Shown: one piece after another, positions 15,209 through 48,903 of the stretch
Position numbering within the stretch: position 1 is the first letter of the stretch
How the letters are laid out: every line of letters starts with the position of its first letter
From: a virus
Taxonomy: Duplodnaviria; Caudoviricetes
Virus record (IMG/VR): IMGVR_UViG_3300005611_000013
Span: 1 to 64,000 of that record
DNA: 64,000 bases
Reading direction: 5' to 3' (one strand)
Notes under the pieces: model-generated
The model's database searches: none
The model's input: the letters and a program-made list of their open reading frames with translations, nothing else
Told to the model about the DNA's origin: nothing
Translations under genes and position numbers: made by a program

Positions 15209-15517
15209 TCACGAGAAAGATTGAAATTTTCGCTCTTCTGCTGAAAATGAAAATGGCTCTTCAGCGAAGTCAACACACTCCTCTAAGAAGAAATCCCACT
15301 CTTCCATAAATCTCTCAAGATTCTCATCTTCTACTATATATGTTACATGGTCAATCTCGTCTTCATACCACACAACCATCCTATCGCCACCTTCGTAATC
15401 TACATCCTTTATATCAACATTTAATGTTCTTGATACGGCAATCTGAACGGGATTGTGTTTTGGATTATTCATAGCCTTAACGATATCATTTTCTGTAACG
15501 TTGATAATCATTTCCAA
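15209..15517 (-). CDS. Acidic hypothetical protein
   Basis: ORF track, overlaps thyX stop. Confidence 0.55.
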   Translation of the reverse strand: MEMIINVTENDIVKAMNNPKHNPVQIAVSRTLNVDIKDVDYEGGDRMVVWYEDEIDHVTYIVEDENLERFMEEWDFFLEECVDFAEEPFSFSAEERKFQSFS

Positions 15518-17202
15518 TCTAAAGCCTCCGAGATAATAGGTAATTGTTCCACAAAAATTTGCTTAATAGAATTTGCTATATCCATATGTTCTTTTTGTGT
15601 TCCATTTGACGACCTTAATTCTATATAATGAATCCATGAACGTATACTGCCCGTCATATATAATTTGGTAGGCGTTGCGAGTGGTAAAACAAATCTGGCA
15701 CACTCTTTCGCTACACCATCTTTTAGTAGAGACTCATACAGTCTAACAGATTTATAAAAATGCTCTTCAATTACACGCTTCCAATAATTTTTTATATGGG
15801 GCTGTATGTCATCAATGCTATTTTGTCTATTCTTATTATCTTGACTTCTTATGTCTGGGCATTCTATTTTGCCAAGCAACTTTGCATCTGCGTATCTTTG
15901 GCTATTATGTACAATTACTCCATCTGCTACATAGTTATGTGAATCATGATCAATTTCTAAATCGTATGTCATTTCTTTACCAATGTATTTCACAAATTTA
16001 ATCTTTGACCACGATACTGTCATAGTATTTCCAATGCCCTTCTCTTTCCATTTTTTATGATCCCCATTCAATCTATGATGTTTCATGTGACAGTTGGAAT
16101 GAACTGGCATGAGATTAGAGTATTCTCTAGCAAGAGACATATTTTCTGATACTGGAATAATATGATGTAGGTGTGTGCGACTATTTAACTTATCTCCACA
16201 CATACCACAACAGTAGTTGTATTCTTTCATAAGTTTATTACGAAACTTAGATATATCTGCTTGAATTTTTTGTCGTTCTTTGGCTACTCCACCTTTCCAT
16301 AAATTAGAATCTTTTCCCTTTTTTGAGGAATCTCGCATCTTCTGTTTTGTTTCCTCAGATCTTAAACCACTAGAATATCCAAAAACACCTTTATTCCAGA
16401 TAGGAGTATATGAAGAAACTTCTTTCTTTGTAAAGCACAAGTTGTGTTTTTTTAGCCATTTGCGAATTGTATGAATAGATACACCAGCAGTATTAGCAAT
16501 ACCAACCAATCCGGTTCCGTCGCTAATACTCTGCTTCTTATGTTCTAACAGCCAATTGTAATCTTGGTGAACTGGAGTGCCATTACATCCAACAGCAATA
16601 TTATTACTAATAACAGCGGTATTACCAACTAGTTTTAGTCCAGTAGCATCTTGAAGAGAAACAAAACCATTTTTGGTCAAAACCTTATGTTCTTTAGTGC
16701 ATTTAATAGATTTGCCGTTTTCCAAAACAATTTCAAAAATATCTTTCATTCCAGTTTGAAAAACTTCTTTGATGTGAGCATGACTTAGTGTTTTGGATAT
16801 TTCGTCATACACTCTAACGAACATATTACGAATACGATTTCGTGAGTTCTCATTCTTTGACCAGTTTTTATATAGATGCTCTAAAGTAAGCGAATATTTT
16901 TGCCTTTTGCCCTTTTTTATAGCGTTTGGTAAGTCAAAATACACATTGGTATCTCCAGACATACAAAACTCTTGAAATGTAAAACTTCTGTGTCTTAAAA
17001 TTTGTGCGGCAATCGCCCTTGTTGTGGTAATCTCTAGCGTCATGTAACCCTGCTCAAAAATACTCCAGTGTTGATTTTTTATGCAGTAAGCGATCAGTTT
17101 GCTGTAATCATCCCGATCTTGCCCGTTTGGGTTGGACACTCTAGCACAGTATGCAATCAGCTTTTCTGCGTCTGGAGTTATTGATATCAATTTTACTTCC
17201 AT
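15508..17202 (-). CDS. thyX: Flavin-dependent thymidylate synthase interrupted by an intein
   Basis: HWSIFE, QILRHRSFTFQEF|intein|SQRY, KECARFVLP. Confidence 0.92.
   Translation of the reverse strand: MEVKLISITPDAEKLIAYCARVSNPNGQDRDDYSKLIAYCIKNQHWSIFEQGYMTLEITTTRAIAAQILRHRSFTFQEFCMSGDTNVYFDLPNAIKKGKRQKYSLTLEHLYKNWSKNENSRNRIRNMFVRVYDEISKTLSHAHIKEVFQTGMKDIFEIVLENGKSIKCTKEHKVLTKNGFVSLQDATGLKLVGNTAVISNNIAVGCNGTPVHQDYNWLLEHKKQSISDGTGLVGIANTAGVSIHTIRKWLKKHNLCFTKKEVSSYTPIWNKGVFGYSSGLRSEETKQKMRDSSKKGKDSNLWKGGVAKERQKIQADISKFRNKLMKEYNYCCGMCGDKLNSRTHLHHIIPVSENMSLAREYSNLMPVHSNCHMKHHRLNGDHKKWKEKGIGNTMTVSWSKIKFVKYIGKEMTYDLEIDHDSHNYVADGVIVHNSQRYADAKLLGKIECPDIRSQDNKNRQNSIDDIQPHIKNYWKRVIEEHFYKSVRLYESLLKDGVAKECARFVLPLATPTKLYMTGSIRSWIHYIELRSSNGTQKEHMDIANSIKQIFVEQLPIISEALDWK
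15904..16965 (-). mobile_element. Intein (354 aa) with HNH endonuclease in thyX
   Basis: Starts CMSGDT, block B KCTKEHKVLT, CGMCG..HLHHIIP..N..VHSNCH, ends YDLEI..HNYVADGVIVHN before Ser. Confidence 0.9.
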
Positions 17203-19156: not shown

Positions 19157-19178
19157 AATGTTTACCCTTGATATAAAG

Positions 19179-19529
19179 TGGAGGCGGGCGGAGTCGAACC
19201 GCCGTGTTGTATAAATTTCCATATAAACTTCTACATGTTTATCTAATCTTATTTTCTAGACATCTTGATTCAAGACTAGCAGAACATACAAGTGTCAAGC
19301 AACTGTTGCTTAGGCCAGTACCGTTGCTATGCTGGCAGCAGGAACATTTTACAGCGATTTTTCGGACCCTAGTTCCAACGGTTCCTAAAATCGTCGTTAC
19401 CTTCTCAGGCAGCGAGAGCTAGATGAGTTTCGCCATCTAAAGCGTTTAGTCCAGTTTTAACGTAGCCTCTAGACTAACTACGACATGCGATCTATATTTC
19501 TTTTTATCAATCGATGCCTTTACGCCCCC
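19179..19529 (-). ncRNA. ssrA: tmRNA; tag peptide (A)GETHLALAA*
   Basis: 5' GGGGGCG pairs with 3' CGCCTCC-A (G3-U wobble), T-arm GGTTCGACTCC, internal GGC GAA ACT CAT CTA GCT CTC GCT GCC TGA. Confidence 0.92.
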
Positions 19530-27629: not shown

Positions 27630-27898
27630 GAACGGTGGGACTCGAACCCACACTGAACGGATTTTCTTACTACTATAACTTTCGTTACCATTTCTGTTTG
27701 TAGTCTGGACTTTATCTTAACCATGACTTTCGTCTTAGGTTCCTGCCGTCAAGTCTCTACACCTTCCTATTACTAGGCTTGGCTCGGTATTGCCATATTA
27801 AAGGTTTCACCGAATTTGACAGGTTCTACTTTATTAGTTTCTTAATAAGCACTCAAATTTCTCTAAGTCCGATGCCTCTGCCTTTGGGCTACGTTCCC
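27627..27898 (-). tRNA. tRNA-Leu(UAA) interrupted by a group I intron
   Basis: 5' exon GGGAACG...TCGGACTT, 3' exon AAAATCCG...GGTTCGAGTCCCACCGTTCCTA. Confidence 0.9.
27666..27864 (-). mobile_element. Group I intron (199 nt, ORF-less) after U34 of the anticodon
   Basis: P1 ACTT/GAGT with U-G pair; P AAATTCGGTGAAAC, Q AATACCGAGC, R GTAGAGACTTGACG, S AAGATAAAGTCC; terminal G. Confidence 0.9.
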
Positions 27899-33633: not shown

Positions 33634-33996
33634 TTAAAGTTTGGGTAAGACAAACTCTAACTTATTATCCTTCATATTGACGGCGTAACTATTAGCCATC
33701 CTTATAGTGTCTATATCGTGAATTACACACTTAGCATATACATTAACCCGCCACCTATTTTCAAATGTATTAATAGACCTACAATGAGAATAATTACTGG
33801 GCTTCTCAATGTAATTAAAAATTAGATCACAAGGGGTCATCTTCATATCCATAAATTCTCCTATAAATAGTAAAAACCGCTGGCTGTACCTATGTTGCCG
33901 ATCTGTAAAGATAGGGTAGTACAACCCTGAACCTTTGTACACTACTATACATCTGTACACTAGTGAACATACGTACACTACTATACATACATACAT
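33634..33996 (-). CDS. Hypothetical protein (real start probably MDMKMTP near 33850), flanked by a ~30-bp direct repeat
   Basis: CCGCTGGCTGTACCTATGTTGCCGATCT at about 33606 and 33877. Confidence 0.5.
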   Translation of the reverse strand: MYVCIVVYVCSLVYRCIVVYKGSGLYYPIFTDRQHRYSQRFLLFIGEFMDMKMTPCDLIFNYIEKPSNYSHCRSINTFENRWRVNVYAKCVIHDIDTIRMANSYAVNMKDNKLEFVLPKL

Positions 33997-38072: not shown

Positions 38073-38456
38073 CTTGCGAGAACGTCAACGCGACGATCTT
38101 CCCCTTGACATCAACCTTTACACCCTCGCGGGTGATGGAAACAACCTTACCATCTGCAAGGTCACTCCCAAGTCCGATCAGTGGTTTCATTCACTCCCTT
38201 TCTTAATGGGCTACTTGTTATATCGTCATTTTATCAGAGGAACTTGAGTTGTCAACCGTTTTTTTCGTTTTTTTGGCTGACTACCCATTTTCCCATGATC
38301 TTGCTAGATCAGCTAAGACAAACCCGTACAAGTGTTCAGTACTGTACAGTGTACACCACTGATCATCTGTCCAGCTTAATCCCTCCTCACTACTCCCTCA
38401 TTCTACACTATCATCGTCCTATGTCAAGGGGTATCTTGAGATTTTCTTGTGAGTGT

Positions 38457-38582: not shown

Positions 38583-39287
38583 TCAGTGAGAAGGGAATAG
38601 TACATTTTTCTTACCGCGAGGACACATATTGCAGGCGTTACTATCTTTACTTCCCGTGCATGTTACAAAGTCACGGCCCTTGCGAATCTCCGGACATGTT
38701 ACAAATGTTTCACCTTCCAACACCACAAGTTTAGGAAGGGCGGCTTGCCACTCGGCTTTCTTTACTTTACCGCGAGGACGCTTTGATACAATGGCCTCGT
38801 CGGAATCACACCACGCGAACAGTTTGAAACCTACTCGCTTGGCTTCTGCCATATCTTCCGCATTGTGAATGCTAGCATACACTGCCATATACTTTTCTAG
38901 TGAAACAAGTCGGCTATCATAAATATGAGTATAAAACCACATATCGGGAAGAGTATAACCGGACTTGATAACAGATTCACAAGCAACACTAACATTATTA
39001 ACATAGTCCTCATCAAGTTTTCCATCAAGAAACCAATCTCCCCGTTCGTGCCATCGGATAGACTTTCCACGCTTAATAGCATCAATGATCATGCTGCGAA
39101 TGCGGGCTACTTCAGTTATAACGTTTTGCATACTGGCGGGGCGAACATTCTTATACTGTCGTTCCGTCGCTTCGGCATAGCACCCATTGCCCAAGAATGC
39201 ACACGTTGAGGGGCAAGTATCGCCCACCGGACGGCTAACAACAACGCAGCCCTTACCCAGTTTGTCGTTCCCGTTTGCTACTTTCAT
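38583..39287 (-). CDS. Cys-rich phage protein (GP88-like, possibly Fe-S/radical-SAM-related)
   Basis: CPSTC..CYA, RWHERGDWF, C-terminal CPE..C..C..C. Confidence 0.5.
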   Translation of the reverse strand: MKVANGNDKLGKGCVVVSRPVGDTCPSTCAFLGNGCYAEATERQYKNVRPASMQNVITEVARIRSMIIDAIKRGKSIRWHERGDWFLDGKLDEDYVNNVSVACESVIKSGYTLPDMWFYTHIYDSRLVSLEKYMAVYASIHNAEDMAEAKRVGFKLFAWCDSDEAIVSKRPRGKVKKAEWQAALPKLVVLEGETFVTCPEIRKGRDFVTCTGSKDSNACNMCPRGKKNVLFPSH

Positions 39288-39373
39288 TTTCTCGTCTCCG
39301 TTGGTGATGCTCTCATTCTACAAAGTATATCGGCAACGTCAAGCGGTATTCTTGAGAAAAAAAAAGATTTTTA

Positions 39374-39428
39374 TGGCACACGGTTTGCACGGGCAAATAT
39401 CATGCCAAAGCTGCGGCACAGAAAATGC
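39374..39428. promoter_or_regulatory. sigma54 box triplet (+,-,+)
   Basis: TGGCACACGGTTTGC (+39374), TGGCATGATATTTGC (-39407), CGGCACAGAAAATGC (+39414). Confidence 0.75.
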
Positions 39429-39440
39429 CTAGAGAAGTGA

Positions 39441-39522
39441 CGTAAGTCGTTGGTATGACTAGACTTACGGCTTTGCCGCCCCGCCCCCCGAGTCGTAAGT
39501 CCTTTGATTGCAAGGGTTTACG
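39441..39522. repeat. Palindrome doublet A4 (39441-39469, 39494-39522)
   Basis: Same architecture, 53 bp; TAA stop of ORF 39518..39928 lies inside the second copy. Confidence 0.95.
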
Positions 39523-39928
39523 TCACCAAGCAATCTTGATCAATGTAGCACCTATGCCCACTAGTTATAATAGTGTCCACATGTCTACCATTCCAGTTTT
39601 CTTCTGGAAAACCCTCCAAACGCCACGCAGTATCAACTATGGGGTTAAAGTATAAGCGAGGATACTCGTCAGTATTTGCAGGACTAAAAACACTAAGATC
39701 ACTACAAAACACATTGCGACACTGAACCCATCCACAAACGTCTTTAACTCCTGCGGCGTATACTTTTCTCGCTTTTGATTCATTGCACACTAACTCACAA
39801 TCTACCATAGTAAGTTGATATTTTGTTGGGTCAACATAAGATGGGGCACACTGCCTATCTTTCCCATCACGAATCTGCCAAAACTTATAGTAAGGTCCAC
39901 GTTGAAGGTGAAAACGAACATTATACAT
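39518..39928 (-). CDS. Hypothetical protein
   Basis: ORF track, RBS GAGG. Confidence 0.65.
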   Translation of the reverse strand: MYNVRFHLQRGPYYKFWQIRDGKDRQCAPSYVDPTKYQLTMVDCELVCNESKARKVYAAGVKDVCGWVQCRNVFCSDLSVFSPANTDEYPRLYFNPIVDTAWRLEGFPEENWNGRHVDTIITSGHRCYIDQDCLVT

Positions 39929-40146
39929 TTAGTTAACCTCTTCGTAATCGTAATCTTCGTCGTAATCATCGCCCACGTAGCAGTCTAGTTCATCATCATA
40001 CCACCACATCTCAGATATGTCAAGATCATCTTCATCCATTTTCATCACCATAAAAAGAGTAAAGGAAACAAAGAAACATAATACTTAGTATGAGTTCAAA
40101 CATTGTATATTCCTATTATACACAGAAAAACGATACTTGTCAATAG

Positions 40147-40219
40147 TAGGGGCGGTGGGACTCGAACCCACGATTTACGGTTTAAAAGACCGTTGCTTTA
40201 GCCACTAAGCTACACCCCC
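40147..40219 (-). tRNA. tRNA-Lys(UUU)
   Basis: Cloverleaf, loop CT-TTT-AA; own sigma70 promoter 40228-40255. Confidence 0.93.
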
Positions 40220-40256
40220 ATATTATCATTATACGACACTTGCGAATCCTGTCAAG

Positions 40257-40340
40257 TCCCAGATGGAGGAATTGAACCACTTGACGCCACCCTACATAAT
40301 ATGTCAGTTGATTTACAGTCAACCGTAGGGATCATCTGGG
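40257..40340 (-). ncRNA. Atypical D-armless tRNA-like RNA with GUA anticodon
   Basis: CCCAGATG/CATCTGGG stem, GTTGA-CTGTAAA-TCAAC arm, GG-TTCAATT-CC T-arm, no D hairpin. Confidence 0.6.
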
Positions 40341-40348
40341 TATTATAG

Positions 40349-40840
40349 TTACCACCAATCGGGAGCGGGCCTGCCCTTCTCCCACTTGGCAAATCTTGCT
40401 TTGTCCATTTTATAGTATTTGCGGTAACTGTCAACCGCATTTTCTGAACGATATTCTTCCGGCATGGCCTGTGCATATGGCGTTTGTGGCCCAATGTTAA
40501 TATAGTCCATCATATCGGCCATTTGTAATATACCATTATGACATGAGTGACGTTTACTATAACGCATAGTATATTCTTCACATAATGCTATACCATGAAG
40601 AGCGGCCCATACAAAGTTAGTTATACTATCGCCAATCCATATTGTAACGGGATGGTGTTTATATCCACCTATAAGTGGAGTACCCTTAGACGTTAGCGGC
40701 ATAGCGGAATCGGTAGCACCGTGGCGACGTAATGCACTACCCATCATCTGGAAAGTTTCAACAACCATTTTTGGTATATGCTTATCACACATACTTTGGG
40801 CTGCTATCTCTGGATCGTTATCTAATACGAAAAGATTCAT
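40349..40840 (-). CDS. Pyrimidine-dimer DNA glycosylase (DenV-like) family protein
   Basis: MNLFVLDNDP..AAQSMCDKH..KM..E..QM; HP..IW; QAMP..Y...YRKYY. Confidence 0.8.
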   Translation of the reverse strand: MNLFVLDNDPEIAAQSMCDKHIPKMVVETFQMMGSALRRHGATDSAMPLTSKGTPLIGGYKHHPVTIWIGDSITNFVWAALHGIALCEEYTMRYSKRHSCHNGILQMADMMDYINIGPQTPYAQAMPEEYRSENAVDSYRKYYKMDKARFAKWEKGRPAPDWW

Positions 40841-41577
40841 TATACATTCTCTGCTCTTTCTAGTGCGGTGCGAATCAGATCTTTCACTGTTATACCATGC
40901 TCGTTCGCCAAGTCAAGAGCATTTTCTCTCATGGGTTTAGATAAAACCGCCATGTGTGACGATAATACTCTCAGAATAAAAAATATAGCAGATTCTTTAT
41001 CCATATCACATCTCCTAAGTACTCATGCGCTCTTCATATATTTCAGCCACTCTTTGTCGGATCTCCACCCATTCTTCAAGGGTGTCAAACTCAGCAAGTT
41101 GTTCTGCAAGTTCCTCGCCAGTGTAACACTCAACTATATACTGTCCCCACGTATGGTAGTTTTCTTCTGCGAGAATCTTAGCCTCACCAATATCTGCCAG
41201 AGTTACTTTCATCATCTTCTCCAAAGTATATTAAAACACCCAGGTAGGACTCGCACCTCAGTACAGTATCTTACCAGAAACACTAGGCTATGTCAAGTGA
41301 TAAGATAGCCTATCTGTACTCCATCTTGCTTGGCTGGGCGATGCTTTGATTATACACTCTATATCGGCACTGTCAAGCGGAATCTTGAGCGTTTTTTGGC
41401 TGACTACCCATTTTCCCATGATATGTCAGGATAGGGCTGTACACCCCTATTCATTTGTACATCAGTGTAAATCTGTACACTACTGTACACCCGTACATCT
41501 AGTGTACATTACCCATCTCCTGTACACCTATCCATTCTACCATATCATCGGCACATGTCAAGTCTGAACTTGAGTGA

Positions 41578-41659
41578 CGTAAGTCCTTTGTTTTCAAGTA
41601 CTTACGACACAAAACCCCCCGCCCCGGTGACGTAAGTCCTTTGATACCAACGACTTACG
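41578..41659. repeat. Palindrome doublet A5 (41578-41606, 41631-41659)
   Basis: Same architecture, 53 bp. Confidence 0.95.
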
Positions 41660-42688
41660 ACTCGCGGGGGTTCTTGGTGAACAAACGTACACTATACGTC
41701 AAGTTTCAGCATTAATATAACCATACAAAATGAGGATAAAAACAATAACAGGCACAATGTTAAAAATACCATTATACATTAATATCCTCAATACTATGTT
41801 GTGCTATTTCATGCCAATCAACATTACTCAACGCGCTCATGATCAAATCGTCGTATAGTCCAGTTACATTTTCAAGTTCGTAGTTATCTTCAAAATGCTC
41901 CTTCAAGTATTCCGCGAGAAGTATAGCAGTCTCTTCTTCCTTTGTAAAATACTGCTGCTCTTCAGCCATACTATAGGCTTCTTTTACCATCTCAGCAAAG
42001 AACTGTTGAGACTCTGGATCATTATTCATCCAAGTATAAACAATCCAAGTTTCATAGTTCGCCCAACCATTATGCTTTTCTGACATTATTATTCTCCTAT
42101 TTTATCCAAGCGTAGGAACGTTCCCAACGTTTCATAATATAACTATGGCTCTTACTATAATGGCGAACCAGACCACCACCAGTAGGCCAAAACTTGCCGA
42201 TATAATACATTCCCTTGGCGGGATCGTACCATACTGAAACACCTTCACGATTTGGGCGTGTTACAAGGTACCGCTTGTCAGTGTAAGTGTTGCTCATTGT
42301 GTTCTTTCCTTGTGGTTGGTGTTGGAGTATTGCAAGGTTATCCATATTCTTTTCTTTTCCTTTTCTCAGATTCTACCAGATATTTTTGTGCTGTCAACGG
42401 GGAACGTTTGTTCACCCTCCCCATTCTTCTGTGATAACCTCACAATGCTCATGGCAGCATGGGCAAAGTTCGTGATCGGCTTCAACGCTATCCATGTACT
42501 CTCCACAGCAGTCGCTAATGAACAGAGTGACAGGGGTGAACGTCTCTTCACACTGAACGTTTGTGCTGAACTTCATCATGGTCTGAATTCCTTTGGTTTC
42601 CTTACTGATCATGCCCTGAGTCTATCAGATATATCGGCACCCGTCAAGCACTTTCTTCAAAGATTTTTCGGATTATTTTTTTCTTCTT

Positions 42689-42744
42689 TGGTACGCGGTT
42701 TGCTCGTGCAAATCTCATGCCAAAACTTTTGGCACGGTTTTCGC
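42689..42744. promoter_or_regulatory. sigma54 box triplet (+,-,+)
   Basis: TGGTACGCGGTTTGC (+42689), TGGCATGAGATTTGC (-42722), TGGCACGGTTTTCGC (+42730). Confidence 0.72.
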
Positions 42745-42756
42745 CTCTCCGAGTGA

Positions 42757-42785
42757 CGTAAGTGGTTGAAAATAAAGGACTTACG
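42757..42785. repeat. Single palindrome A6 followed by a G-rich linker
   Basis: CGTAAGT-GGTTGAAAATAAAGG-ACTTACG then ACTCGGGCGGCGGGG. Confidence 0.92.
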
Positions 42786-44040
42786 ACTCGGGCGGCGGGG
42801 CCCCGTAGTGTACAGGTGTTCAGTACTGTACACCTTGGGGGTGAACGGGATCGGGTAGTGTACATATGTCTACCTACTGAATGGGTGTTCAGTCCTCCCA
42901 CAGTGAACGTTCGTTCAGGATGTTGTCTTCGTCCATGTAGAATGCTAGAGTCTTCGCTCTAGTTTCGGCCTCATGGTCGCGGGCTGTTTTCCGCTTCAAC
43001 TTTTCTGACCTACGATCAAGCCAAGCCTCATAGTCGGCATCGCTCACCGTCCAATCCATCTCCTCTGCGGTGATTTCGGGACCGCGAAAATCTTCCAGAG
43101 CGTCAAAGAACTCTTCCCCCTCTGGAAGGGAGACGTTCTCTGTTTCTCTTTTGAGTTCTGCGATGGCTGCGTTGAACTCTTCAATGGTCAAGATTTTGTA
43201 GTTGATATTTTGCATTTTCTTTCCTTTTCCTTTTCTTCCTTTTCCCAAGTCTACCAGATATTTTTCGGCTGTCAACACTGAACACTTGTTCAGTATTCTA
43301 CTGGTGAACTGTTGAACAGCAGATAGAACACGACGAAAAACAGAACGATTGAAAGCACACTGAACATTTTTTCACCTCTCAGCAATCGGGGTCAAAACTC
43401 TGCCATTCATCATACTCGGTGGGTTGCCCATCGTCAACCTCAAAATCGTAAAATCCGTCGGAATCCTCATCTTCTGGCTCTGGCGAATAATCGTCCAGAA
43501 CAGCAATCTCCTCAAAACTTTTCATAATCCTAGCAAATGCTTCGGGGCTAACCTGAAACGGGCTTTCCATTTTCTTTCCTTTTCCTTTGTGGTGTCCTGA
43601 TTCTACCAGATATTTTTTAGGCTGTCAACACTGAACACTTGTTCAGGCTTCACAGAAAACCTTTTCAAGATGTAGAGTTGTCTTTGCATTGGCGATCCAT
43701 CCTTCTGGAATCAGACCATAGGCTTCATCGGCATTGATGGAATCAATGAATCCGACCTTCCGATCTCCATCCCAAACCGAGAATCCGGTTTGAATCAATC
43801 CATGTTGTGAACGTGGCTTCCACGTTCCGTGAATGTGAGAAGTACGGGCAATCTTGCGAACTAGTGAACGTTTCATTTTTCTTTCCTTTTCCTTTTCCTT
43901 TTCCTGATTCTACCAAAGTTTTTTTTGCTTGTCAACACTGAAAACTTGTTCAGTAGTTGTCGGGAAGGGTGATCCAAAACAGGAAGGCCAACCCCGAGAG
44001 AATGATGATTGTGATGATGTTTTCCATGCTAGAATATAGT

Positions 44041-44055
44041 GCGAATGCCGTGCCA
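44041..44055 (-). promoter_or_regulatory. sigma54 box TGGCACGGCATTCGC
   Basis: GG-N10-GC spacing; enhancer-like triplet about 100-180 bp upstream of its predicted start. Confidence 0.6.
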
Positions 44056-44126
44056 AACCCTGAAAAATATTTTTGTGCTTTTTTCCCGTGTTTTACGCAC
44101 ATTTTTTTTCGTGCCTATTTTTTAGG

Positions 44127-44207
44127 CGTAGCATTTTGCAACAGTGGTGTAGCATTTTGCGTCACTGTTTTCCCGAGTGAAATCGCAAAGTGTAGCATTT
44201 TGCAACA
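44127..44207. repeat. Three phased near-palindromes TGTAGCATTTTGCAACA
   Basis: Copies at 44127, 44148, 44191 (offsets 21 and 43 bp). Confidence 0.85.
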
Positions 44208-44262
44208 CCCCCCACTGGTGGTAACGCTTTTGGGCTGCTCACAGATTAGGCAGTGCGTTTTT

Positions 44263-44344
44263 TGGCACGGAAGTTGCTGTAGTGTGCAAATATCATGCCA
44301 AACGCTATCCGTCCGGTTTGGGTGAGACATGGCACGGCGTTTGC
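44263..44344. promoter_or_regulatory. sigma54 box triplet (+,-,+)
   Basis: TGGCACGGAAGTTGC (+44263), TGGCATGATATTTGC (-44300), TGGCACGGCGTTTGC (+44330). Confidence 0.78.
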
Positions 44345-44356
44345 CATGGCAAGTGA

Positions 44357-44438
44357 CGTAAGTCCTTATATATCAACGACTTACGACTCGGGCGGCGGGG
44401 CTTCAGCGACGTAAGTCCTTTATTCCCAAGGGTTTACG
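44357..44438. repeat. Palindrome doublet A7 (44357-44385, 44410-44438)
   Basis: 53 bp; linker in G-rich orientation. Confidence 0.95.
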
Positions 44439-45478
44439 TCACCGCCCGCTAGCCACTGTACATACGTTCAGGTATCCATCTGTTCAGCGTATGCCTCATC
44501 CATCATCATCATCTCTAGTGTACGCCTGTTCAGTTCTTCCATGTGTTCAGCATGTTCAGCCGATTCAGTGTACAGACGTTCATCTTCACACATTCCGGGG
44601 TAGTAGGTGTCCATGTGTATAGTGCTCCTTTGTTCAGTTGGAGGATTCGGGATACCAGTGGAGACGAAGTTGGTTCGCACAGTTTGCAATCAAGTTGCGA
44701 TGAAACTGGCGGTCATACTCATCAAGATCCCAACGTTCTAGGCAGATCTGGCTCTGCTTGATGGCAGAGATGAGATCCTGCACTTCATAGTCAAGATCTG
44801 AAAATCGGAATCCGGGGGTTTGTGCAACGCTCATTTTTCTTTCCTTTTCCTTTGTGATGCTCTGATTCTACCAGAGATTTTCTTGCTCGTCAACACTGAA
44901 CATGTGTTCAGTCAAGGTACTCTAGGCCAGTAATCTTGTCTTCGTGAAACGTCTTCGTCTCACCGCTGGTCAACAGTACGGTGATGCAGTAAACGTTTTT
45001 CAGTGAACGAAACCGGCTCACCACTTCACCGTCGCGGGCCTTGCCATTGTAGAAAAAGCGGATTCTTGGGTTTTTCATGTCTTTCATCTCCTTGGGTATG
45101 TCCTGATTCTACCAAATGTTTTTCGGGCTGTCAACACTGAACAGGTGTTCAGATCAGATCGTTCACCAGTTCGTTGCCATTCTGGTCAACGATCCTGAAC
45201 TCTGTAGCGTGGTCGCTACCTTCCCAATCGCCACGGACAATGTTTTCCAGCATGGCGGCATTGCTGTGAGTGGTGTACCCAATCACTTCGCCATAGATGT
45301 CATAGATACGGGCGATGAACAGAGGTGTAGTTGTGAAGTTCATTTTCTTTTCCTTTTCTTTCTTTTCCTTACTTCTTATATCGGCATTCTACCAAAGATT
45401 CTTGAATCCGCAATACTGAACAAATGTTTTTTTGTGTCAAGATTTCTTGACAAAGATCGCAGCAAGATTGCGGTCGTT

Positions 45479-45534
45479 TGGCACGCAGTGTGCTATTGCA
45501 AATATCGTGCCAAACTTTTTGGCATGGAAAATGC
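45479..45534. promoter_or_regulatory. sigma54 box triplet (+,-,+)
   Basis: TGGCACGCAGTGTGC (+45479), TGGCACGATATTTGC (-45512), TGGCATGGAAAATGC (+45520). Confidence 0.75.
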
Positions 45535-45546
45535 GTCCCGAAGTGA

Positions 45547-45628
45547 CGTAAGTCCTTTCATATCAACGACTTACGACTCGGGCGGCGGGGCCGCGATGAC
45601 GTAAGTCCTTTATTCCCAAGGGTTTACG
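45547..45628. repeat. Palindrome doublet A8 (45547-45575, 45600-45628)
   Basis: 53 bp; near copy of A7. Confidence 0.95.
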
Positions 45629-46404
45629 TCTCACGGTGGCGAACGCGGTGTACATGCGTCTACCTAGTGTACAGTTGTGAGTACTGAACAGATGTCTACC
45701 TGTACATGCGAATCCCCCTCATTAGAGAGAGGATTCTAGAAGGTGATGGTCAACCTGATTCTCATAGAAGTTGCGATACTCTCCACCTTCAAGGCGAACG
45801 CAAATCAAGGCACCCCTCTGGTAGAGATCCTCTGAACGATCCTCGCGGATGCTCATGATCTCGCCAGTGTACCGGTTTCCACTCTTGGAAACCCATTCCA
45901 CACTGTCACCGATCTTGTAGCGGTTTGAAGCGTTGACGTTGATGAAGTTTTTCATTTTTCTTTCCTTTGGTTTCTTTCTTCTTCTTCTATTCTACACTAT
46001 CGGCTTTTGGGTGTCAACCCCTTGAATGGATTTTTTTCAGCAGGCCAACGCTCCTGCTTGGCGTAGGATGGACATGCTGTACATGTTTTCATCACCATCC
46101 CACTTTTCCCAAGCCGCTGTTTCGGCTTCTTCCTTTGTCTGGAATGGACCAATGTAGTCCAGTTCGCATTCCCAAGCATCCATCACGAGAGCGTAGTAGT
46201 TGTAGATCATTTTCTGTTTCCTTTTCTTCTTTCTTTCCTTTTCTCTATTCTAGACTATCGGCAATCCGCTGTCAACCCCTTGAGGATTTTTTTTTCGGAT
46301 TTTTTTTGCCTCTCGTCTTTCCCTCTCAACTATGCCACCATTATACCAAACGATCCAGATTTGTCAATACTGTACAAATGTTTTTTTGGGATTTTTTTTT
46401 GTGT

Positions 46405-46442
46405 GCAAATATCATGCCAAAAATCATTGGCACGGCAAATGC
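46405..46442. promoter_or_regulatory. sigma54 box pair (-,+)
   Basis: TGGCATGATATTTGC (-46419), TGGCACGGCAAATGC (+46428). Confidence 0.75.
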
Positions 46443-46454
46443 GTCTGAAAGTGA

Positions 46455-46536
46455 CGTAAGTTGTTGGTATCAAAGGACTTACGACGCTGGCGGCGGGATG
46501 GCAGATACGTAAGTCTAGGCATATCAACCACTTACG
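46455..46536. repeat. Palindrome doublet A9 (46455-46483, 46508-46536)
   Basis: 53 bp; last unit before the strand switch. Confidence 0.95.
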
Positions 46537-46700
46537 ACTCATGGTAAGATGGGTGGGGTGGGGGTTTTATCTTCAAAAGTGAACTTGGGTAAAATGGCGA
46601 AAAAGCCCGGGGTGGTTCAAACAAAATAACCCCAATCAAATTAATATGTCTTACCCGATCTCTTCAGATAGACCCTAAGAGTTGCTAAATATTACCGCAA

Positions 46701-46710
46701 TGTGTATAAT
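46701..46710 (+). promoter_or_regulatory. Putative phage late-promoter motif TGTGTATAAT
   Basis: Same motif at 54212, 56294, 59375 (+) and 4591, 11422, 19954, 22253 (-), each upstream of a gene start. Confidence 0.6.
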
Positions 46711-46730
46711 ATCACTAGGAGGAAACAACT

Positions 46731-46904
46731 ATGAAACAGAAGAAACAAATAGACTGTCAATTGAATTGCAAAGCGACCGCATCTTTGTCGTTAGAAGTAT
46801 TAAACGATTTAAATCAAGAAGATCGCCCCATTGCATCCATAATTAACGACGAACGAAGTGAGGATGACGATGAAGTTAAAAACATCCAGAATCCAAGCAC
46901 TTGA
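46731..46904 (+). CDS. Small hypothetical protein (MKQKKQIDCQ...)
   Basis: RBS AGGAGG, read manually, 57 aa. Confidence 0.55.
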   Translation: MKQKKQIDCQLNCKATASLSLEVLNDLNQEDRPIASIINDERSEDDDEVKNIQNPST

Positions 46905-47634
46905 AAAGGGTCTACCAACTAACACATCCGATATAGAACTACTAGGCACAGAAGCCCTAATAGTAGATAAAGATTACGCACAGCTAATTGAACAAAAAGA
47001 AATAAGCTCATCCACAAATAGTTTTATTTCACTATTTGGCATTAACACAAAGTTCTTTTACTCTATAACGTTAGTATGCGAAGATCACGGTTTCACTGAA
47101 CGTGGCTTGGGCTATGTATCTGAAAACGAAGGTAAATTCTTCTTAAAAAGATTCCGCCCCTTCTACATGATAGACAACGGCATTCCCATCCCCCTTCTCA
47201 AACCCAGGCCCGTTGTCTGCTCCCATAACGATTATGTTATGGTATCTTCATACGTACCAACAACATTCGTTGAGGTACTTACTGAAGCTAATTCTGTTAT
47301 TACGTCTGAATCGCCCCACCTCCCAACATCCGTTGTCGTTAATAAGAACTCCGTTCTTGGAAGACATGACGGTAATCTGGAGTCTTTGCCCCTTGACTCA
47401 CTTGTTGGAGAAGAATCGGCCCGTAAGTCCGTAACAGACTACAATAAAAATTTATCTTTAAAAAGCCCAAAGGTTGATATTAAACGTTTGACAGCCAATA
47501 ACATCCAACTTAACACAATGAAAAATGCCCCTGAACGAAAAGGCGTTATATATTATGATGAAACAGACGACTGTATTAAATACTATGACGGTACTAAGTG
47601 GAGATCGCTAGTGTGGCAAGAGGACGGCCCATGA
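46858..47634 (+). CDS. Hypothetical protein, virion-type C-terminal motif
   Basis: KGVIYYDETDDCIKYYDGTKW terminal motif. Confidence 0.6.
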   Translation: MRMTMKLKTSRIQALEKGLPTNTSDIELLGTEALIVDKDYAQLIEQKEISSSTNSFISLFGINTKFFYSITLVCEDHGFTERGLGYVSENEGKFFLKRFRPFYMIDNGIPIPLLKPRPVVCSHNDYVMVSSYVPTTFVEVLTEANSVITSESPHLPTSVVVNKNSVLGRHDGNLESLPLDSLVGEESARKSVTDYNKNLSLKSPKVDIKRLTANNIQLNTMKNAPERKGVIYYDETDDCIKYYDGTKWRSLVWQEDGP

Positions 47635-48125
47635 AAATACCCCAAGGAATGAACGAACAACAAGTGGTTGAACAAATTAACATTGTCGTTAATAGGATTT
47701 CGCCCAAGTACACATTTAAGGGGTACGAGGTTGAGGATATAAAACAAGAGGCTTTTATGATATGTATGGACGCCCTTGACCGTTATGACGCAAGTCGGCC
47801 CCTTGAGAATTTCTTATCAGTACATCTTTCTAATAGATTGAAGAATTTTGTAAGAGATAACTTCTTCGTCAAAGACGACGAAGATAAGAAGAGGGTACTG
47901 GCCCCAAAGCAATTACCACATGACGATCAAATTCTTGACAGGGAATGCAATATAGATGATAAGCTGGATATGGGCGACATAAAAATAATAATAGACCGCT
48001 TTTTGCCCGTTGAGCTTCGGTCTGATTACTTAAAGTTCACAAGTGAAGCTTATATACCAAAGAAAAGAAAACTTTATCTTATTGAGGTAATACGTGAAAT
48101 TCTAAAGGAGAATGGTTATGCGTAA
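47598..48125 (+). CDS. Phage sigma-70-like factor (region 2-like)
   Basis: EVEDIKQEAFMICMDALDRYD.SRPLENFLSVHLSNRLKNFVRD. Confidence 0.72.
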   Translation: MEIASVARGRPMKIPQGMNEQQVVEQINIVVNRISPKYTFKGYEVEDIKQEAFMICMDALDRYDASRPLENFLSVHLSNRLKNFVRDNFFVKDDEDKKRVLAPKQLPHDDQILDRECNIDDKLDMGDIKIIIDRFLPVELRSDYLKFTSEAYIPKKRKLYLIEVIREILKENGYA

Positions 48126-48903
48126 GGGTAGAATTTCCAAAGAAGAAGAACGCACAATTGCCCGTCTACTTGATAGTATGACGCCTGAAGACATAGCGGC
48201 AAAACTAGACCGCGATGTAGAGTCTGTTATTGACTTTATTAAACGTAAGTTCAGGGTGGGCGTTACAAACGAAGAAGCCGCCGCTTTCTCTTTAGAAGAT
48301 CGGCCCTATTGGCTAGAGCTTAAAAATCAATTCACAAATGAAGAACTTGAATTATTCAAATATCATTGGTCCCGCATTATCGCACAGTTCAAAGATGACG
48401 TTTTCCCAACGGAAGAACTTCAGGTTGTTGATGTTATAAAGCTTGAGCTATTAATGAATAGGTGCCTTAAAGCTAATAAGGATAATATTGAGCAAATAAA
48501 CATTTACGATAAATTGTTGAAAGAAGAGAGGGAAAATGATAGAGATCAACAGGATCAAGATACTATTATTAACTTAGAACGGCAAACGGCGAGCCTTCGT
48601 GCAGCACAAGAAAGTTTGAATAGGGATTACCGCGAACTTCAAGCTAAAAAGTCAAGCATGTTAAAAGAGATGAAGGGTACTAGAGAACAGCGAATAAAAA
48701 GACTTGAGGATAGTAAACAAAGTTTTACGTCTTGGGTTGCAAGTCTTATACAAGATCCAGAGAAAATGAAAAAGTACGGCATTGAAATGGAAAAAATGAG
48801 ACTTGCCATGAAAAAGGAAGAGGAAAGATTAGGGGCTTATCACAAATACGAAGATGGCATGATTGATCAGCCATTCTTAACACCAGACACGGTTAGAGAA
48901 TAA
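48112..48903 (+). CDS. HTH + long coiled-coil protein; terminase small-subunit candidate
   Basis: N-terminal MTPEDIAAKLDRDVESV HTH, coiled coil, position in the packaging operon. Confidence 0.4.
   Translation: MVMRKGRISKEEERTIARLLDSMTPEDIAAKLDRDVESVIDFIKRKFRVGVTNEEAAAFSLEDRPYWLELKNQFTNEELELFKYHWSRIIAQFKDDVFPTEELQVVDVIKLELLMNRCLKANKDNIEQINIYDKLLKEERENDRDQQDQDTIINLERQTASLRAAQESLNRDYRELQAKKSSMLKEMKGTREQRIKRLEDSKQSFTSWVASLIQDPEKMKKYGIEMEKMRLAMKKEEERLGAYHKYEDGMIDQPFLTPDTVRE

Follow-up and report, generated by a model that had tools for sequence, protein, structure and literature searches.

The 64,000-nucleotide window analysed here, the first 64 kb of an IMG/VR viral contig 73,081 bp in length (IMGVR_UViG_3300005611_000013, hereafter G000; CheckV completeness ~48%) from an uncultured phage with a genome of about 150 kb, carries in its leftward early arm fifteen short boxes that, judged from motif enrichment and an independent weight matrix, are genuine −24/−12 sites of the sigma-54 (RpoN) type. 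Most of the boxes form symmetric clusters at the boundaries between gene cassettes, and the protein that reads them is probably the host sigma-54 RNA polymerase. Tentatively, and with slightly less than even confidence, we take each cluster to be an activator-gated, two-way host sigma-54 promoter unit.

The exact motif TGGCAY-N5-WTGC occurs 10 times in the window against 0.43 matches expected (none of 100 shuffles reached 10), and all ten matches are confined to positions 39374–46442. When one mismatch is allowed there are 27 matches, 15 of which fall inside this 7.07-kb stretch, and the remaining 12, scattered elsewhere, are at chance level (11.4 for the whole window). The fifteen boxes (10 exact, 5 with one mismatch) are those that a first-pass annotation of this DNA had pointed out and likened to the RpoN consensus; they are borne out at the positions that it gave, and the GG-N10-GC spacing that it described is kept in every one of them. 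Both strands were also scanned with a weight matrix built from 83 boxes of other viral contigs, the seed 18-mer being left out: 14 of the 15 boxes score between 17.5 and 27.5 bits, far above the rest of the window, where no position reaches 14 bits, and box 39414 is a weak exception (6.5 bits). By class, the mean scores are 24.9 bits for the minus boxes, 22.7 for the first plus boxes and 16.3 for the last plus boxes (Table 1).

At the core of a cluster, box 1 and the minus box form a pseudo-symmetric pair of 34 bp, their −12 elements lying 4 nt apart around an A/T centre; the offset between the two boxes is 19 bp in three of four clusters and 23 bp in cluster 3, with an A/T-rich centre, and box 3 is a weaker back-to-back partner. 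The (+,−,+) order ascribed to the clusters applies to clusters 1–4; in cluster 5 it is (−,+), owing to decay of the first box, and the two boxes there point outward, one per gene arm. The fixed distance of 13 nt between the last plus box and the following palindrome, also claimed at first pass, stands: the five 37-nt copies align without gaps though the 7 nt in between differ, with 13 nt separating the box from the GTAAGT of the palindrome and 10 nt separating it from the first paired base of the stem. A face-to-face TGGCAT pair with a 19-bp offset also occurs at 436–469, seemingly within coding sequence, but with TTGT and TTGA in place of TTGC; this pair is probably either fortuitous or decayed.

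At least 119 viral contigs contain the exact 34-bp face-to-face element, compared to ~0.3 expected by our own chance estimate, and 700 exact boxes are distributed across 152 loci, the GC content of the box-bearing contigs ranging from ~33% to ~60%. A 19–20 bp face-to-face overlap is the preferred geometry even among loci that were not selected for it, and the contact positions within boxes are conserved among the paralogues of this phage as well as in distant contigs, unlike the spacers and flanks, which diverge. In the profile of 154 half-sites from other contigs, T-TGGCA-Y-R is followed by a loose spacer, by TTGC and by an A/T-rich centre, and pyrimidines are absent (0%) from the position after TGGCAY; this profile agrees with the GG/TGC elements described for sigma-54 (PMC3844500). 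The 34-bp element was not found among 802 bacterial genomes (~1.4 Gb), a weak test from which we draw no conclusion, in that the viral count is only a lower bound and gives no per-base rate.

All open reading frames (ORFs) of 151 box-bearing loci, each covering up to 15 kb, were clustered into families. The largest shared family, a terminase that is absent from this phage, is found in 48 of the 151 loci, and the sigma-70-like factor and D5-like regulator of this phage occur in 21 and 19, respectively; the loci span two or more phage lineages whose terminases differ, and these have no neighbouring gene family in common. The recurrence of the same motif in unrelated lineages without a shared nearby gene, which we regard as the strongest argument in this matter, suggests that a conserved protein of the host, sigma-54, reads the boxes.

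The boxes belong to a repeated boundary module that, in the sense of the leftward genes, runs from the end of the upstream gene through a palindrome doublet, the boxes (backward, forward, backward), an A/T tract, a sigma-70-type promoter and a Shine-Dalgarno site to a small gene. The promoter is near-consensus (TTGACA, 16–17 nt, TG-n-TAGAAT) and the Shine-Dalgarno region purine-rich, and the doublet consists of two imperfect ~33-bp palindromes with a 53-bp pitch and a GC-rich linker. Nine doublets and 24 near-consensus sigma-70-type promoters are found in the early arm (about 33–46.5 kb); four of the nine doublets (34050, 35777, 38455 and 41577) lack boxes and run directly into the promoter, so that the boxes are an optional insert and the doublets independent of them. 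By its combination of a stem-loop and a strong sigma-70-type early promoter between small genes, the module qualifies as a cassette like the early promoter/stem-loop (PeSL) cassettes of T4-type phages, both here and in a complete relative.

This relative (G002), a 151,300-bp record rated 100% complete, is syntenic with the contig at 26–66% protein identity and has 10 exact boxes, of which 9 map to the homologous early arm, embedded in the same module with the same palindromes; the arrangement there comprises one forward single box, one pair, one triple and four backward singles. Upstream of the orthologue of gene 38583–39287, which has a triple cluster in G000, G002 carries a single consensus backward box. 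Using the 18-mer of a central box as query, 33 viral loci were found, one of them in G002, and most with several boxes. In four relatives (L018, L028, L010 and L013) the boxes are kept, but unrelated GC-rich hairpins occupy the position of the palindromes; in four (L010, L022, L024 and L013), as in cluster 5 here, the best box stands at the head of the early arm and is directed at its first gene.

What the analysis establishes is the motif, its enrichment, its conservation in relatives and in unrelated phages, the anatomy of the module and the lack of a phage-encoded activator or sigma-54 in the records checked; the identity of the reader, the occurrence and directions of initiation and the activator are inferred. 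The 34-bp pair would hold one polymerase in either orientation, as a silent closed complex that persists until it is opened by an active host enhancer-binding ATPase, which could act while free in solution or when bound to DNA, for example to the three palindromes at 44128–44206; with the A/T centre shared by both sites, melting could begin in either direction. Transcripts from the five leftward starts predicted for the minus boxes (Table 1) would read through the sigma-70 promoter and provide the next cassette with a sigma-70-independent route, while rightward transcription would re-enter the palindromes and be antisense to the cassette before, or, from box 46428, head for the rightward arm. 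It counts for this reading that the gene-facing minus boxes are the strongest class in the window; the gene-facing boxes comprise the five cluster minus boxes, the box at 44041 and the plus box at 46428.

One of three options raised at first pass was that the minus boxes drive the leftward genes, with the doublets as upstream sites for integration host factor (IHF) or enhancer-binding proteins. This option fits the genome in part: the minus boxes have the best scores and face the genes, and the centres of the doublets lie at ~−76 and ~−129 from the predicted minus-box starts in four clusters, distances inside the usual range of sigma-54 enhancers (PMC3844500). Against it, the downstream cassettes have consensus sigma-70 promoters of their own, doublets occur without boxes, relatives swap the doublets for unrelated GC hairpins, and the orthologous promoter of G002 has one backward box; the doublets are therefore probably not dedicated enhancers of the boxes.

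As far as its sequence tells, only 44041–44206 has the look of an enhancer-dependent sigma-54 promoter of the textbook kind. Downstream of cluster 3 follow, in order, three 15-bp palindromes, located at ~−106 to −169 from the solo box, five A-runs, the box itself and, 2 nt beyond the predicted start (~44029), ATG 44027 of a 25-residue hydrophobic ORF. This ORF has neither a Shine-Dalgarno site nor detectable homologues, no sigma-70-type promoter precedes the box, and the three palindromes do not recur in G002 or the other loci checked.

A number of observations weigh against the clusters being two-way promoter units. A near-consensus sigma-70 promoter already serves each cassette after clusters 1, 2, 4 and 5; the remaining 8 plus boxes of the window, and 6 of the 9 G002 boxes, face backwards; and boxes upstream of sigma-70-type promoters are divided between 46 forward and 55 reverse (19 versus 23 for single boxes). 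Both the number and the direction of boxes differ between orthologous intergenic regions of G000 and G002. Overlapping sites cannot all be occupied simultaneously, and the dense alternating arrays with a ~40-bp period found elsewhere (L144, L145, L171, L189 and L237), which are long and far denser than anything in the window, look more like protein-binding arrays than promoters. Moreover, the search for a phage-encoded activator that the first-pass annotation had suggested came out negative: no enhancer-binding ATPase (PF00158) is encoded by this contig, by G002 or by eight other box-bearing phage records (five of the ten at least 90% complete), six records searched for the DNA-binding domain of sigma-54 (PF04552) lack it, and no GAFTGA motif occurs in G000 or G002 when they are translated in six frames. 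The sole PF00158 match, in G003 and G004, is RuvB, and a weak PF04552 match spans a gene junction with two stops; both were discarded.

Boxes with TTTGC are reportedly, from work of the Buck laboratory, a strong-binding class, and in studies of nifH promoter variants the TTTGC tract, which the boxes here carry, reportedly marked sites with strong binding at which activators can work from solution. As a precedent for the gated promoter unit, some sigma-54 activators that lack a DNA-binding domain act on any closed complex (PMC3844500).

The missing activator gene in every phage record checked, the roughly 50/50 orientation of boxes relative to the downstream promoter and their invariable position between cassette-end palindromes and the next promoter would suit silent docking sites, where host sigma-54 or its holoenzyme is bound as closed complexes that never fire and that act as a decoy, as a boundary to read-through or as an occluder or tuner of the sigma-70 promoter; the annotation had listed a sponge or roadblock of this kind. 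Sigma-54 holoenzyme does bind in a transcriptionally inactive form, and many of its bacterial sites are intragenic or antisense, with proposed roles in interference (PMC4591121; PMC3844500). We nevertheless consider silent docking, the main rival, less likely than the promoter unit: overlapping sites add little capacity and a sponge would be better served by separate ones, yet the overlapping geometry is preferred; a single early genome copy cannot titrate much; four of the nine boundaries here have no boxes; and no evidence was found that closed complexes block an elongating polymerase. Of similar probability is a wider form of the idea, in which overlapping sigma-54 arrays in several phage lineages would be capture devices that insulate cassettes or, after genome amplification, drain sigma-54 from stress or defence regulons. 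Were the reader a phage or host protein other than sigma-54, it would regulate the adjacent early promoters by recognizing either T(G/T)GCA pentamers, one in each turn of the helix, or the palindromic junctions TGCCA-N7-9-TGGCA and TTGC-N4-GCAA. The box itself is a direct TKGCA repeat with an 11-bp pitch, sites follow each other every 19–23 bp in alternating orientation within clusters (and in the long arrays of other contigs), the distances by which boxes precede sigma-70 promoters would suit an activator or a repressor, and the D5-like and sigma-70-family proteins encoded next to the control region are DNA-binding candidates. Such a reader is quite unlikely, given that the same detailed motif recurs across lineages that differ in terminase and GC content and share no nearby family; single asymmetric consensus boxes are common (three in G002, for example), the distance to the −35 element varies from 22 to 73 nt, and a chance match of an unrelated site to all conserved sigma-54 positions is improbable.

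The palindromes bear on another of the three options, namely that the plus boxes start small hairpin RNAs at the first base of each doublet; the product of the last plus box would be a two-hairpin RNA antisense to the early genes. The 13-nt offset is fixed in all five copies, whose filler has diverged without insertions or deletions, box and stem are similarly spaced (10–12 nt) in G002, L014 and L019, and an excess of A–C over G–T mismatches in the stems of the gene-sense strand (11 versus 4 here, 33 versus 12 in G002) would correspond to G–U wobbles on the antisense RNA. However, this excess stems from one recurrent arm variant and does not represent independent events, box 3 is the weakest class, four doublets have no boxes, and the single backward boxes of G002 lie ~23 nt from the palindrome. 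No T-run follows the doublets, so that a terminator role of the stem-loops is not evident; the stems are imperfect, and many hairpins of G002 are weak. Folding energies show no consistent strand preference (mean difference +1.3 kcal/mol here and +0.1 in G002), and the palindromes were accordingly rejected as strand-specific RNA hairpins; they look more like protein-binding DNA sites, and hairpin RNA as the main function of the boxes is very unlikely. The boxes could finally be passengers of mobile boundary cassettes that spread by repeat recombination, with little or no function of their own here: the module resembles the gene-shuffling PeSL cassettes (PMC2839356), box number and direction turn over quickly between G000 and G002, and the first box of cluster 5 has decayed. 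Against this highly improbable explanation stand the contact positions, conserved while spacers and flanks diverge, and the 14 of 15 boxes that still score far above background.

Sigma-54 promoters of the classical enhancer-dependent type are exemplified by glnAp2 and pspA. Like bacterial sigma-54 promoters (PMC3844500), the boxes of the phage have exactly spaced GG/TGC elements within an extended TGGCAYR...TTGCW consensus and are intergenic, and the box at 44041 has upstream palindromes and A-runs; unlike them, the phage boxes overlap face to face or back to back, mostly point away from genes and precede a full sigma-70 promoter, the phage has no activator gene, and most of its boxes have no visible enhancer. 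The intragenic and antisense sigma-54 sites of Salmonella and E. coli (PMC3844500; PMC4591121) are likewise not placed as operon promoters, with interference, antisense and search-acceleration roles proposed, but they are scattered, single and mostly intragenic, whereas the phage sites are clustered, intergenic and conserved across phages. Pseudo-symmetric sigma-70 promoters, which bind polymerase in either orientation (PMC12825309; PMC10268837), share with the 34-bp pair one short symmetric element and two mutually exclusive binding orientations (predicted here); their symmetry resides in the −10 element, whereas here two whole sigma-54 sites share an A/T centre and divergent starts are predicted.

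Among phages, a preprint (bioRxiv 10.1101/2023.10.13.562163, citing Ceyssens et al. 2008) describes a sigma-54-like promoter with a mapped start, P015, in Pseudomonas phage YuA. YuA is a virulent phage that uses a host sigma-54-type promoter, with one site in a conventional layout, whereas the phage studied here has 15 sites, in symmetric clusters at cassette boundaries that are common to many uncultured phages. YuA is the only case of a sigma-54-type phage promoter with a mapped start in the literature that we found, in keeping with the remark at first pass that lytic phages are rarely described as using sigma-54; no paper was found on clustered symmetric sigma-54 sites in phage early regions. 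The PeSL cassettes, by which T4-type phages have their genes shuffled (PMC2839356), correspond to the present module in combining a repeated stem-loop with a strong sigma-70 early promoter between small ORFan genes, in a plastic early region with quick turnover; they differ in having no sigma-54 boxes, and the module here has a double palindrome of conserved sequence, with a 53-bp pitch and no T-run.

The analysis contributes the comparison with a complete relative, which reveals fast turnover of box number and direction, the separation of boxes from background by an independent matrix, the gene-family test for a shared reader and the enhancer-like module at 44041–44206. Phage transcription programmes are understood almost wholly in terms of sigma-70, phage sigma factors and phage polymerases. 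If the proposal is correct, a large and diverse set of uncultured phages would place part of its early programme under a host switch, ATP-dependent and gated by signals, for which the phages themselves have no gene, or would neutralise that switch; either way, the outcome of infection would be tied to the physiological state of the host, be it nitrogen status, envelope stress or RNA damage. A new sigma-54 promoter architecture would then be represented by the symmetric 34-bp element, which is short enough for direct testing in vitro, and silent docking, if that were the case, would amount to a DNA-encoded, protein-free manipulation of a host sigma factor.

Table 1. Sigma-54-type boxes, palindromes, promoters and adjoining genes in the window; starts and promoters are predicted.
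Feature	Position	Strand	Details
Cluster 1, box 1	39374–39388	+	exact; 27.1 bits; faces away from leftward genes; face-to-face with 39393–39407
Cluster 1, central box	39393–39407	-	exact; 24.0 bits; faces gene 38583–39287; start ~39381
Cluster 1, box 3	39414–39428	+	1 mismatch; 6.5 bits; CGGCA, AATGC; 13 nt before GTAAGT of palindrome
Cluster 2, box 1	42689–42703	+	1 mismatch; 21.0 bits
Cluster 2, central box	42708–42722	-	exact; 26.5 bits; start ~42696
Cluster 2, box 3	42730–42744	+	1 mismatch (TTCGC); 18.2 bits
Solo box	44041–44055	-	1 mismatch; TTCGC; 20.9 bits
Cluster 3, box 1	44263–44277	+	exact; 21.6 bits
Cluster 3, central box	44286–44300	-	exact; 24.0 bits; start ~44274
Cluster 3, box 3	44330–44344	+	exact; 21.3 bits; extra ~22 nt between central box and box 3
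Cluster 4, box 1	45479–45493	+	1 mismatch (GTGC); 21.0 bits
Cluster 4, central box	45498–45512	-	exact; 27.5 bits; start ~45486
Cluster 4, box 3	45520–45534	+	exact (AATGC); 18.0 bits
Cluster 5, central box	46405–46419	-	exact; 22.6 bits; heads leftward early arm; start ~46393
Cluster 5, plus box	46428–46442	+	exact; 17.5 bits; sole plus box facing genes (rightward arm, ATG 46731)
Doublet by cluster 1	39440–39526		two imperfect ~33-bp palindromes; 53-bp pitch; GC-rich linker
Palindrome A by cluster 2	42756–42789		second palindrome degenerate
Doublet by cluster 3	44356–44442		
Doublet by cluster 4	45546–45632		
Doublet by cluster 5	46454–46540		
Three copies of 15-bp palindrome	44128–44206	-	GTTGCA-AAA-TGCTAC type; starts 44206, 44163, 44143; 43 and 20 bp apart
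Sigma-70-type promoter	39315–39342	-	TTGACG-N16-TAGAAT; for gene 38583–39287, downstream of cluster 1
Sigma-70-type promoter	42619–42647	-	downstream of cluster 2
Sigma-70-type promoter	45386–45413	-	downstream of cluster 4
Two tandem sigma-70-type promoters	46247–46367	-	A-tract upstream regions; downstream of cluster 5
Sigma-70-family protein (PF04542, region 2)	47598–48125	+	adjoins control region; conserved in about 20 related loci
D5-like regulator	48112–48903	+	adjoins control region; conserved in about 20 related loci

The GC content of the window is ~36%, rising to 41–48% across 34–47 kb, and gene direction switches at ~46.5 kb from leftward to rightward. The contig encodes seven tRNAs, a transfer-messenger RNA (tmRNA), a group I intron, rIIA, a thymidylate synthase with an HNH insert, a large terminase and the sigma-70-family protein that heads the rightward arm. 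Of these, the phage-borne tmRNA lies at 19176–19529 on the minus strand (Rfam, 97.5 bits; predicted tag GETHLALAA), the intron at 27685–27874 (−; Rfam, 69 bits) and the thymidylate synthase ORF, split by the HNH endonuclease domain, at 15508–17202 (−). Megablast of 39–47 kb gave no match, and there is no close cultured phage; the terminase, capsid and DUF7227 proteins have best identities of ~22–26% to records of Bacillus, Microcystis, Mycobacterium and cyanophages, so that these matches give no indication of the host. Assignment of a host by the GDP-mannose dehydratase gene was uninformative (~50% identity to genomes from more than 20 phyla), and WhiB, the marker by which an actinophage might have been recognized, is absent. 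The G-E-T start of the tmRNA tag resembles the tags of Bacteroidota, a host against which the TTGACA/TATAAT promoters and strong Shine-Dalgarno sites argue.

Further features accompany the doublets and promoters. Between 34050 and 46540, the linker of the doublets is G-rich on the gene strand in five (34.1, 35.8, 38.5, 39.5 and 41.6 kb) and C-rich in the other four, which lie closest to the control region; the order of the two palindrome types remains constant. Most early promoters at 42380–45160 on the minus strand have, directly adjoining their −35 element, a 16-bp palindrome of the form CTGAAC-N4-GTTCAG (for example at 43629–43646, 43936–43953, 44894–44911 and 45135–45152); it fits the SOS-box patterns CTG-N10-CAG and GAAC-N4-GTTC and could be a site for the host LexA or a phage repressor. 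Arrays of TGTACA-containing repeats with a ~18-bp period lie in transcribed leaders just past some early promoters (41420–41530, 33920–33990 and 38320–38350, −). The start of the rightward arm (46682–46904, +) displays TTGCTA-N17-TATAAT, AGGAGG and, from ATG 46731, an ORF of 57 residues, whose N-terminal motif K-Q-x-x-C-Q-L-x-C-K-A is also present in the relative L010 and which may encode a small regulator.

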